This document shows positions 6,741 to 8,956 of a DNA stretch of 64,000 nucleotides, piece by piece. The notes under the pieces are model-generated. The model searched no databases, was not told where the DNA came from, and was given only the letters and a program-made list of their open reading frames with translations. How positions within the stretch are numbered: position 1 is the stretch's first letter; each line of letters begins with the position of its first letter. The translations under genes and the position numbers were made by a program. This DNA comes from Candidatus Omnitrophota bacterium. Its GTDB lineage: Bacteria > Omnitrophota > Gorgyraeia > Zapsychrales > Fredricksoniimonadaceae. The stretch lies in contig JAUSEK010000023.1 in NCBI GenBank assembly GCA_030650275.1, positions 34,189 to 98,188 on the forward strand, given 5' to 3'.

Positions 6741-7775
6741 ATGGCACAATTATTTCATATGGGAAAAAAAATAGGGCTCACCTACGATCTTAAAAGCGAT
6801 TGGCAGGCGTCTTCCGACGACCCTGTTGACGCGGCTGCCGAACTGGACAGCTCGCGCACGGTCGAATGCCTGAAAAAGGCGTTCGAGTCGGCGGGACACA
6901 CGGTCAAACTCATCGGCGGCGTGAAACACCTGCTCAAGATGCTGCCCGATCCCGGCGTGGACATTGTTTTCAACATCGCCGAGGGCCATCGCGGCCGCAA
7001 CCGCGAAGCCCAAGTGCCGCTCATCCTGGAATTGTTCAACATCCCTTTTGCCGGAGCGGACGCGCTGACGCTGGGCATCACCCTTGACAAGGTGGCGGCC
7101 AAGAAATGTTTTATCGCCGACGGCATCCCGACGGCGCGCTACTTCAAGGCGACCGCGGAGGATGACTTAGGCGAGCTCAATACCATCGGTTTCCCTTTGT
7201 TCGTCAAGACCCTGCACGAAGGGACCTCCAAAGGGATCACGCCGGGCTCGCGCGTGGAGAACTTCAAGCGCCTGAAGAAACAGGTCGATTTCATCAACAT
7301 GAATTACAAACAGCCGGCGCTGGTGGAGGAATTCATCAAGGGCACCGAATTCACCGTCGGGATCATCGGCAATGACCCGCCGCAGGCCATGCCGGTGGTG
7401 CAATACGCCATCGACGGCAAGACCGAACTGGGCAACGCGTTTTACACCTATGCCCACGTGGTGGACAAAAGCGTTGAGTACATCTGTCCGGCGCCTATCG
7501 ACGAGGATCTCGCCAGGAAACTGCAGGACATCGCGATCCGTGCTTACAAGAGCGTCGACTGCCGTGATTTCGGGCGCGTGGACTTTCGCATGGACAAGGA
7601 AGGTAAGCCGTATGTCCTGGAAATAAACCCTTTGCCCAATTTGAGCCCCGATGACGTTTTTGTGCTCTTCGGCAATGCGCTCAAGCTGACGTACAACCAG
7701 ATCATTAACAAGATCCTGGACGAGGCCCTGGTGCGTACGGGCCTGCTCCAGAGGGAGGAAGCGTACAAAAAATGA
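6741..7775 (+). CDS. ATP-grasp enzyme of the D-alanine--D-alanine ligase family
   Basis: Ddl-like ATP-grasp motifs (EEFIKGTEFTVGIIGN, VLEINPLPNLSP); overlaps downstream KamA start. Confidence 0.7.
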   Translation: MAQLFHMGKKIGLTYDLKSDWQASSDDPVDAAAELDSSRTVECLKKAFESAGHTVKLIGGVKHLLKMLPDPGVDIVFNIAEGHRGRNREAQVPLILELFNIPFAGADALTLGITLDKVAAKKCFIADGIPTARYFKATAEDDLGELNTIGFPLFVKTLHEGTSKGITPGSRVENFKRLKKQVDFINMNYKQPALVEEFIKGTEFTVGIIGNDPPQAMPVVQYAIDGKTELGNAFYTYAHVVDKSVEYICPAPIDEDLARKLQDIAIRAYKSVDCRDFGRVDFRMDKEGKPYVLEINPLPNLSPDDVFVLFGNALKLTYNQIINKILDEALVRTGLLQREEAYKK

Positions 7776-8956
7776 ACCCTGTTGCCGCGCCCGCTCAAGA
7801 AGAAATAGTCTCTTTGGACCTTCCCAACATCCCTTTGTCCGCCGGTGAAAAACGCATCATCAAGTTTTTTCCGGGAGCGACCCTGGCGGATTGGGAGGAT
7901 TGGCGCTGGCAGATCCGCAACCGTATCCGCACCTTTGAGCAGATCTCCAAATTCATGACCCTGACCCCCAACGAAGAAAAAGGGGTGAAGGGGGCGGGGG
8001 ACAAATTGACCATGTCCATCCCGCCGTATTTCGCGGCCTTGATCGACCCCAAGGATACCGGCTGTCCCATCCGCCTGCAGTCCGTGCCCCAGGCCTTTGA
8101 ATTCGAGACCGCGCCCGAAGAAATGCGCGACCCCTGCGGCGAGGACAAGGATTCCGCCGTGCACGGGCTGGTGCACCGTTATCCGGACCGCGTCTTGTTC
8201 CTGGTCAATGAAATGTGCGCCATGTATTGCCGCTACTGCACGCGTTCGCGCATGGTCGGCGACGGCAACCATACGCTCAACATTGCCACGTACGACGCAG
8301 CGCTCAACTACATCCGCGGGCACAAGGAGATCCGCGATGTGCTGATCTCCGGCGGCGACCCCTTGACCCTGGGCGACCGCATGCTCGAGTACATCATTTC
8401 CAGCGTCAAGGCGATCCCCCATGTTGAATTCGTGCGGATCGGCACCCGCATCCCGGTGACACTGCCCCAAAGGGTGACGCCGGAACTCCTGGCCATGTTC
8501 AAGAAGTATTCGCCGATCTGGATGAGCATCCATTTTAACCATGCCCGGGAGATCACACCACGCGTCAAGCATGCCTGCAACATGATCGCCGACGCCGGCA
8601 TTCCCATGGGCAGTCAGACCGTTTTGCTCAAAGGGGTCAATGACGATCCGGTCGTGATGAAAAAACTCATGCACGAACTTTTGAAGATCCGCGTGCGGCC
8701 GTATTACATTTACCAGTGCGACCCCATCATCGGCTCCAGGCATTTCCGCACCAGTGTCGCAACGGGCATCAACATCATGCAGAACCTGCGCGGGCACACC
8801 ACCGGTTACGCGGTGCCCACCTACGTCATTGACGGTCCGGGCGGGGGAGGCAAGATCCCCATCTCGCCCGAGTACATTGTTTCCAAAGACAACGGCCGTT
8901 ACGTCCTCAAGAACTTCGCGGGCAAAATATACACCTACGTGGACCCCACCTACTAA
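7772..8956 (+). CDS. KamA-family radical SAM aminomutase (lysine 2,3-aminomutase-like)
   Basis: CAMYCRYCTRS radical-SAM cysteine triad in KamA context; PLP-lysine region; 394 aa. Confidence 0.8.
   Translation: MNPVAAPAQEEIVSLDLPNIPLSAGEKRIIKFFPGATLADWEDWRWQIRNRIRTFEQISKFMTLTPNEEKGVKGAGDKLTMSIPPYFAALIDPKDTGCPIRLQSVPQAFEFETAPEEMRDPCGEDKDSAVHGLVHRYPDRVLFLVNEMCAMYCRYCTRSRMVGDGNHTLNIATYDAALNYIRGHKEIRDVLISGGDPLTLGDRMLEYIISSVKAIPHVEFVRIGTRIPVTLPQRVTPELLAMFKKYSPIWMSIHFNHAREITPRVKHACNMIADAGIPMGSQTVLLKGVNDDPVVMKKLMHELLKIRVRPYYIYQCDPIIGSRHFRTSVATGINIMQNLRGHTTGYAVPTYVIDGPGGGGKIPISPEYIVSKDNGRYVLKNFAGKIYTYVDPTY

Follow-up and report, generated by a model that had tools for sequence, protein, structure and literature searches.

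An overlapping ligase and aminomutase gene pair

We analyzed a stretch of 64,000 nucleotides (the window) from a Candidatus Omnitrophota bacterium (assembly GCA_030650275.1, contig JAUSEK010000023.1, positions 34,189 to 98,188 of the forward strand), in which a gene for an ATP-grasp amide ligase with the fold of D-alanine-D-alanine ligase (Ddl) overlaps a gene for a radical S-adenosylmethionine (SAM) enzyme of the KamA aminomutase family. Both lie on the forward strand of the window. The ligase open reading frame (ORF), of a type that we call G1, occupies 6741-7775 and encodes 344 amino acids; the aminomutase ORF occupies 7772-8956 and encodes a radical-SAM protein of 394 amino acids that depends on pyridoxal phosphate (PLP) and belongs to a short form of the lysine 2,3-aminomutase (LAM) type. 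The original prediction of an ATGA-overlapping pair of a ligase and a KamA-type gene was borne out, with both ORFs and both families recovered. Sequence reading places the overlap at 7772-7775, with the aminomutase ATG (7772-7774) lying on the ligase TGA (7773-7775), and finds a Shine-Dalgarno-like GGGAGGA inside the ligase gene (7753-7759), about 13 nucleotides upstream of the aminomutase start. This classical layout indicates probable translational coupling, and an identical ATGA overlap is present in the closest syntenic genomes (L001-L007).

Upstream of the ligase gene lies an AT-rich spacer of 55 bp (6686-6740, forward strand), in which sequence inspection and promoter and Rfam scans found no consensus promoter, terminator or riboswitch. 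Because most orthologues have 336-339 amino acids, translation of the ligase may instead start at Met7 (6759). The G+C content of the pair matches that of its flanks, and the closest homologues of both proteins, which number in the hundreds at 70-99% identity, come from metagenome-assembled genomes of Candidatus Omnitrophota. An antisense ORF of 482 amino acids (7544-8992, reverse strand) spans the whole aminomutase gene and exceeds its length; most likely it is non-coding, a shadow of the G+C-rich KamA frame.

Family membership was assessed with Pfam and with NCBIfam models (June 2026) and their curated cut-offs. The aminomutase matches Pfam Radical_SAM and LAM_C and passes the KamA family model TIGR00238 (344.2 bits, cut-off 199.2). 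Among the narrower models it comes closest to AblA (TIGR03820, 511.0 bits, cut-off 525.4, not reached), of which it covers model positions 3-362 of 417. It also stays below the cut-offs for glutamate 2,3-aminomutase (TIGR04368, 452.3 bits, cut-off 650), arginine 2,3-aminomutase (416 bits, cut-off 600) and EpmB (TIGR03821, 240.7 bits, cut-off 369.3). Compared with LAM of Clostridium subterminale (PDB 2A5H), it scores 474.7 bits and is about 60% identical over 362 residues (aminomutase residues 31-392).

With LAM and with AblA of methanogens the window aminomutase shares the CxxxCxxC motif, the PLP lysine and three substrate-binding residues. Its CAMYCRYC corresponds to LAM Cys125/129/132, its GGGGK contains the equivalent of the PLP-binding Lys337, and LAM Arg134, Asp293 and Asp330 are all retained. 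In the LAM structure, Arg134 binds the substrate carboxylate and Asp293 and Asp330 bind the epsilon-ammonium group; in glutamate 2,3-aminomutase, Asp293/Asp330 become Lys/Asn. To place the enzyme among its relatives, we aligned 92 ligase-linked KamAs drawn from genomes and metagenomes. Arg134, Asp293, Asp330, the cluster cysteines and Lys337 are kept in 89-92 of the 92, the three exceptions being truncated sequences. Checking the Asp293/Asp330 equivalents thus supports the lysine-type substrate first proposed, for the window enzyme as for its relatives. Unlike LAM, the window enzyme has an N-terminal extension of about 30 residues and lacks the C-terminal 46 or so residues that carry Cys375/377/380. 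It ends at the equivalent of LAM Pro368, as do most of the 92, and the zinc/tetramerization tail is therefore absent. Asp takes the place of the zinc ligand Cys268 in the window enzyme, and 91 of the 92 likewise have another residue there, so that LAM's zinc site is missing. Judged from these features, the window aminomutase belongs to a distinct short KamA subfamily with a predicted lysine-type pocket. Since carboxylate, alpha-amine (through PLP) and epsilon-amine would all be recognized, the substrate should be free L-lysine, and the mutase should then act before the ligase.

The ligase has a Ddl fold and falls outside every curated Ddl family. It matches Pfam Dala_Dala_lig_C with 121 bits, and its best NCBIfam match, the broadest Ddl model (NF002378), gives 165.8 bits with a cut-off of 243. 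TIGR01205 gives 153.5 bits (cut-off 245.65), and every other Ddl or Van model likewise stays below its cut-off. Identity to DdlA, DdlB and VanA is 24-26%. To compare active sites, we mapped the ligase by alignment to Escherichia coli DdlB and to a family alignment of 235 sequences. The ATP-grasp fold is present with its ATP-binding lysines and Mg-binding Asp, Glu and Asn: K117, K156, E196, E203, R279 (DdlB Arg255), D281 (Asp257), E294 (Glu270) and N296 (Asn272) are invariant across the 235 sequences. The ligase should therefore be a working acyl-phosphate-forming enzyme, and we assume its catalytic competence in what follows.

The residues that handle the substrates in Ddl are changed. DdlB His63 and Glu68 are replaced by Glu81 and Arg86, and Lys215-Tyr216 by H239/V240 in the window ligase and by Arg-Ile in most orthologues. 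Gly276 becomes Asn or Ser, His280 becomes Asp or Glu, and Ser281 becomes Asp305, which is 100% conserved in the clade. Further clade-specific acidic residues have been added at D16, D27 and D107. The N-terminal 43 residues, which include an invariant D30..E34.D36 motif (D..AE.D), do not align to Ddl at all and form a novel segment. The role of Ser281 in Ddl is to hold the carboxylate of the incoming D-alanine. The invariant Asp305, the acid that flanks it and D16, D27 and D107 together argue for a cationic amine as acceptor, for example the second amino group of beta-lysine. With all curated cut-offs missed and the substrate residues changed, the enzyme is not a bona fide Ddl, as had been supposed. 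Public annotations nevertheless name members of the family "D-alanine-D-alanine ligase" and one fragment "VanB", and these names are misleading.

Conservation of the pair across genomes

To determine how widely the two genes occur together, we ran the family alignment against one genome per GTDB species. Nearly all of the best 80 loci among the matches listed come from Omnitrophota. In 71 of them a KamA gene follows downstream on the ligase strand, and in the remaining nine the contig ends at most about 1 kb from the ligase; every one of the 71 informative Omnitrophota genomes within this set thus has KamA after the ligase. Two tandem ligase paralogues precede KamA in 58 of the best 80 loci, with frames that often abut or overlap. 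Such G1-G2-KamA loci occur among L015-L083, and in L024 the three genes lie at 5992-6996, 6997-7998 and 7995-9182. The paralogues differ in their pockets: G2 keeps the Ddl-like Lys215 and Ser281, whereas G1 has Arg or His and Asp there, so the two probably bind different acceptors. The clade of the window keeps G1 only. The two-gene pathway of the original prediction therefore describes the window correctly and the family incompletely, because the module usually comprises three genes (KamA and two paralogous ligases), with a GCN5-related N-acetyltransferase (GNAT) added in some lineages. The two-gene form is a lineage-specific reduction.

A metagenome scan extended the family to distant relatives that are 31-46% identical to the window ligase. 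KamA is present in 35 of 48 informative loci, in 34 of them within 1 kb, and is missing from 13; a further 32 loci were too short to judge. At least six gene orders (G, ligase; K, aminomutase) are represented, among them K>G, K>G>G<, G>K, G>G>K, G>G>GNAT>K and GNAT>K>G, and in one metagenome lineage a sigma-54 two-component pair is inserted in the module. We also searched exhaustively over representatives at 50% identity, which gave 879 clusters below E = 1e-30. Three of these are single proteins that join the two enzymes, ligase-KamA in P0286 and KamA-ligase in P0385 and P0387, and a fourth fusion, again KamA-ligase, is L126:4954-7050, so that both orders occur. Many other clusters are double-ligase fusions of 650-720 amino acids (P0244, P0258 and others). 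That the linkage has survived rearrangement, and that the two enzymes are fused in either order, strongly supports a single pathway. The adjacency of ligase and KamA is far beyond chance, and the functional coupling that had been proposed from a single overlap now rests on conserved synteny, several gene orders and Rosetta-stone fusions.

Some distant ligases lie in other contexts. In a Bacillota branch (P0301-like, including Candidatus Fermentithermobacillus, CP062796) the ligase gene is located between lon and a GNAT gene, with no KamA within 10 kb, and one metagenomic clade has a GH38-Dus-MFS context. The link to KamA thus does not hold for the entire ligase family, whose members cannot all be confined to beta-lysine.

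A small GNAT recurs beside the ligase family in three arrangements, including that of the KamA-less Bacillota branch. G>G>GNAT>K loci are L123, L143, L145, L146, L153 and L156, and other ligase-linked GNATs are found at L095:1903-2415, L164:11420-12094 and L166:11867-12451. These proteins show weak generic matches to RimI, AAC(6'), SpeG and streptothricin acetyltransferase. We considered whether they might be AblB, and this identity is unsupported, since none matches the AblB model. Their resemblance, limited to small-amine N-acetyltransferases, hints at a small cationic amine as product. No GNAT gene was found in positions 1-16000 of the window.

Clustering of neighboring genes over 160 loci revealed no conserved extra gene beyond the second ligase paralogue and the occasional GNAT. 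Genes for an M20 deacylase and for PAC2-like, HAD, COG2122-like, EF-G-like and YchF-like proteins were considered as partners and set aside as clade-specific synteny. Among these, a paralogue of the elongation factor G (EF-G) family (653 amino acids, passing NF009381) follows the module at L024:9226-11894 and in about 28 other Omnitrophota loci, where it is accompanied by a protein of 233 amino acids whose match is limited to the C-terminal part of YchF. The position of these two genes probably reflects synteny and not function.

Within the window, the neighbors of the pair are housekeeping genes. On the 5' side lie genes for an aminotransferase, a tetratricopeptide repeat protein and a PfkB kinase, then era, nth and genes for an MgtE-like protein and an NRAMP transporter; on the 3' side lie rpsU, purH, folC and mnmE. 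A perfect sigma-70 consensus (TTGACA-16-TATAAT, 12 of 12 matches; 8961-8988, forward strand) stands between the aminomutase stop and rpsU, which encodes ribosomal protein S21 (9036-9191, 51 amino acids; TIGR00030, 57 bits). Because this promoter starts the rpsU unit, the pair forms a unit of its own at its 3' side. An Rfam scan of the window and 10 related loci yielded tRNAs only, with no lysine riboswitch and no element near the pair. As the flanking genes vary by clade and rpsU has its own consensus promoter, the module appears to be self-contained.

A predicted beta-lysine ligation pathway and its alternatives

We consider it probable that the two genes form a self-contained module that converts lysine into beta-lysine and then, at the expense of ATP, builds it into an amide, giving a small cationic beta-lysine product. 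In the first step, for which the conserved active-site residues argue, the KamA-type enzyme, with its [4Fe-4S] cluster, SAM and PLP, would shift the amino group of free L-lysine from the alpha carbon to C3, giving beta-lysine (3,6-diaminohexanoate). In the second, to which fold, conserved catalytic residues and gene linkage all point, the Ddl-derived ATP-grasp enzyme would convert a carboxylate into an acyl phosphate and then form an amide bond involving beta-lysine. The product would be a small cationic dipeptide, oligomer or conjugate of beta-lysine, such as beta-lysyl-beta-lysine or X-beta-lysine. In most relatives G2 would add a further carboxylate-bearing residue, and in some the GNAT would N-acetylate an amine. 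Candidate roles for the product are those of a compatible solute, a polyamine-like cation or an envelope component, and phylum-wide conservation among core genes suggests that its role is physiologically central.

Parts of this scheme have counterparts elsewhere. Synthesis of N-acetylglutaminylglutamine amide (NAGGN) is a precedent for a GNAT/ATP-grasp route to a dipeptide osmolyte. The enzymes involved (Ngg, a GNAT-ATP-grasp fusion, and AsnO), like the L-amino-acid ligases BacD, RizA and BL00235, belong to ATP-grasp subfamilies other than that of the window ligase, and to our knowledge none of them uses a beta-amino acid supplied by a dedicated radical-SAM mutase. In streptothricin, too, LAM-derived beta-lysine is held in amide linkage, and its amine is the target of an N-acetyltransferase. 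There, however, the bonds are made by adenylation enzymes of the nonribosomal peptide synthetase (NRPS) type in a secondary-metabolite cluster, in contrast to a Ddl-derived ATP-grasp enzyme in a housekeeping context. We put forward only tentatively, as a conjecture that may well prove wrong, that the module makes a novel primary metabolite or modification of Omnitrophota and scattered uncultured lineages: either an oligo-beta-lysine or beta-lysyl-dipeptide polycation, as the ATP-grasp counterpart of the NRPS-made streptothricin side chains, or a beta-lysyl protein modification that replaces EpmA.

Several observations weigh against a small beta-lysine amide as the product. About one quarter of the informative distant family members have no nearby KamA. 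The equivalent of Lys215 in the window ligase is His or Val according to the alignment, and full catalytic competence is an assumption. The pocket was read from an alignment to E. coli DdlB, which leaves the N-terminal 43 residues unaligned, and not from a structure with bound substrate. Moreover, conservation across the phylum at 50-85% identity among housekeeping genes is unusual for a dispensable metabolite and would fit a role in modifying a macromolecule.

Protein modification is the most probable of the alternatives, although we regard it as unlikely. The ATP-grasp enzyme would attach KamA-made beta-lysine to Lys34 of elongation factor P (EF-P), as a non-orthologous replacement of EpmA, or to a carboxylate, at the C-terminus or on a side chain, of a ribosomal or another protein in the manner of RimK or LysX. 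Like EpmB and EpmA, the pair brings together a KamA-family aminomutase that has no C-terminal domain and an enzyme that would use ATP to attach beta-lysine. In favor of a protein target, the phylum-wide module sits amid translation genes (era, rpsU and mnmE in the window, the EF-G paralogue and the YchF-like gene in the Omnitrophota loci described above), and the linked GNATs match RimI, if weakly. The modification of EF-P is, in addition, unknown in most phyla (PMC2821294, PMC4739656). The neighborhood genes vary, however, and resemble plain synteny, and the aminomutase is LAM/AblA-like, not EpmB-like (241 bits for EpmB, below the cut-off of 369, versus 511 for AblA and 475 for LAM). The ligase, unlike EpmA, is an ATP-grasp enzyme and not a paralogue of lysyl-tRNA synthetase, and its Ddl-like fold is typical of small-molecule ligases. 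Searches by tblastn with E. coli EF-P and EpmA were negative for the window and for 83 related loci, and none of 163 loci contained efp, epmA or a conserved small ORF for a carrier. These results agree with the earlier view that the genes are not an EpmA/EpmB pair. We also know of no ATP-grasp enzyme that acylates a protein lysine.

A role in envelope chemistry, in which the ligase would add beta-lysine to a peptidoglycan precursor or another envelope polymer, or would make a beta-lysine dipeptide for one, seems to us improbable. It has analogies in Ddl, from which the ligase derives, and in the enterococcal ATP-grasp D-aspartate ligase, and the module is conserved like a housekeeping gene. 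The window also contains genes for murein and lipopolysaccharide: those for an AmiC-type N-acetylmuramoyl-L-alanine amidase and a glutamate-racemase-like protein overlap each other (40085-41927), and a lipid A acyltransferase is encoded at 57363-58268. These three genes imply a diderm organism with ordinary murein and lipopolysaccharide. Unlike ddl, however, the ligase gene is linked to KamA, and no mur, dcw or fts genes adjoin it in any of the 163 loci. The Ddl substrate residues have been lost, and we know of no murein that contains beta-lysine.

A reversed order of steps, in which the ATP-grasp enzyme first makes a lysine amide and the aminomutase then isomerizes the lysyl moiety within the conjugate, is very unlikely: the ligase comes first in the Omnitrophota gene order and the fusions would permit channeling either way, but the invariant Arg134, Asp293, Asp330 and PLP lysine leave no position of lysine free for prior conjugation. 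Hardly credible at all is a coincidental adjacency of a true Ddl, as the public annotation would have it, and a KamA (just 14 bits short of the AblA cut-off) that serves lysine fermentation or the synthesis of the osmolyte acetyl-beta-lysine, given synteny in all 71 informative Omnitrophota genomes, several gene orders, fusions in both orders, a ligase below all Ddl cut-offs with Asp in place of Ser281, and no kamDE, kdd, kce, kal or ablB near the module. LAM and AblA, by comparison, are accompanied by lysine-fermentation genes or by the AblB acetyltransferase, whereas the partner here is an ATP-grasp ligase and no acetyltransferase gene adjoins the pair in the window, so that the pair is not a classical AblA/AblB system either, as anticipated. 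The window was also found to contain no efp, epmA or second ddl.

The description of the module as uncharacterized holds for the sources consulted. Pfam and NCBIfam (June 2026) contain no family specific for either partner, and a full-text literature search found no paper that links the aminomutase and ATP-grasp families. The enzyme families are known; what is new is their conserved combination and, on the evidence of the pocket residues, a predicted specificity. The pairing is kept, with fusions in both orders, across a candidate phylum of ultra-small, largely uncultured bacteria. If the small-molecule pathway proposed here is correct, it would add a new fate of beta-lysine to those known from EF-P lysylation, lysine fermentation, the acetyl-beta-lysine osmolyte and NRPS antibiotics. 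Within the Ddl branch of ATP-grasp ligases, the enzyme would then stand for a new class of specificity, one that could be a useful biocatalyst for beta-peptide bonds. The ligase family, now widely mis-annotated as "D-alanine--D-alanine ligase" and "vancomycin resistance protein", would also receive a correct name. The chemistry of each component is conventional and the function is predicted, so that the module is best seen as a lead for finding enzymes and metabolites in an uncultured phylum. At 2.2 kb, the pair is of a size that can be tested directly by heterologous expression.

Other features of the window

Several features elsewhere in the window were recorded. An AbiEi antitoxin and AbiEii nucleotidyltransferase toxin pair (type IV toxin-antitoxin) is encoded at 36667-38329 in a patch of low G+C content (45% versus about 56%), which suggests a horizontally acquired insert. 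A second low-G+C region (52404-58000, 44-48%) starts exactly at a tRNA-His gene (52404-52480), and its first gene encodes an AAA_14/DUF4143 ATPase (52559-53776); this region may be an integrated element. Two ORFs, at 24919-28359 (1146 amino acids) and 49900-51453 (517 amino acids), have no Pfam match at E <= 1e-8, and the longer one is located in a stretch of lower G+C content (about 50%).

A sugar-utilization cluster extends over 14947-24705 and 31287-32300. It comprises genes for a GH94 phosphorylase-like protein, an MFS_2 transporter, a solute-binding protein with an ABC permease, a GH2 enzyme and a LacI regulator. Finally, a tRNA-Pro gene (47493-47566, reverse strand) overlaps the annotated 5' end of a DUF748/YhdP-like ORF of 916 amino acids (44801-47551, reverse strand), the real start of which therefore lies further downstream.

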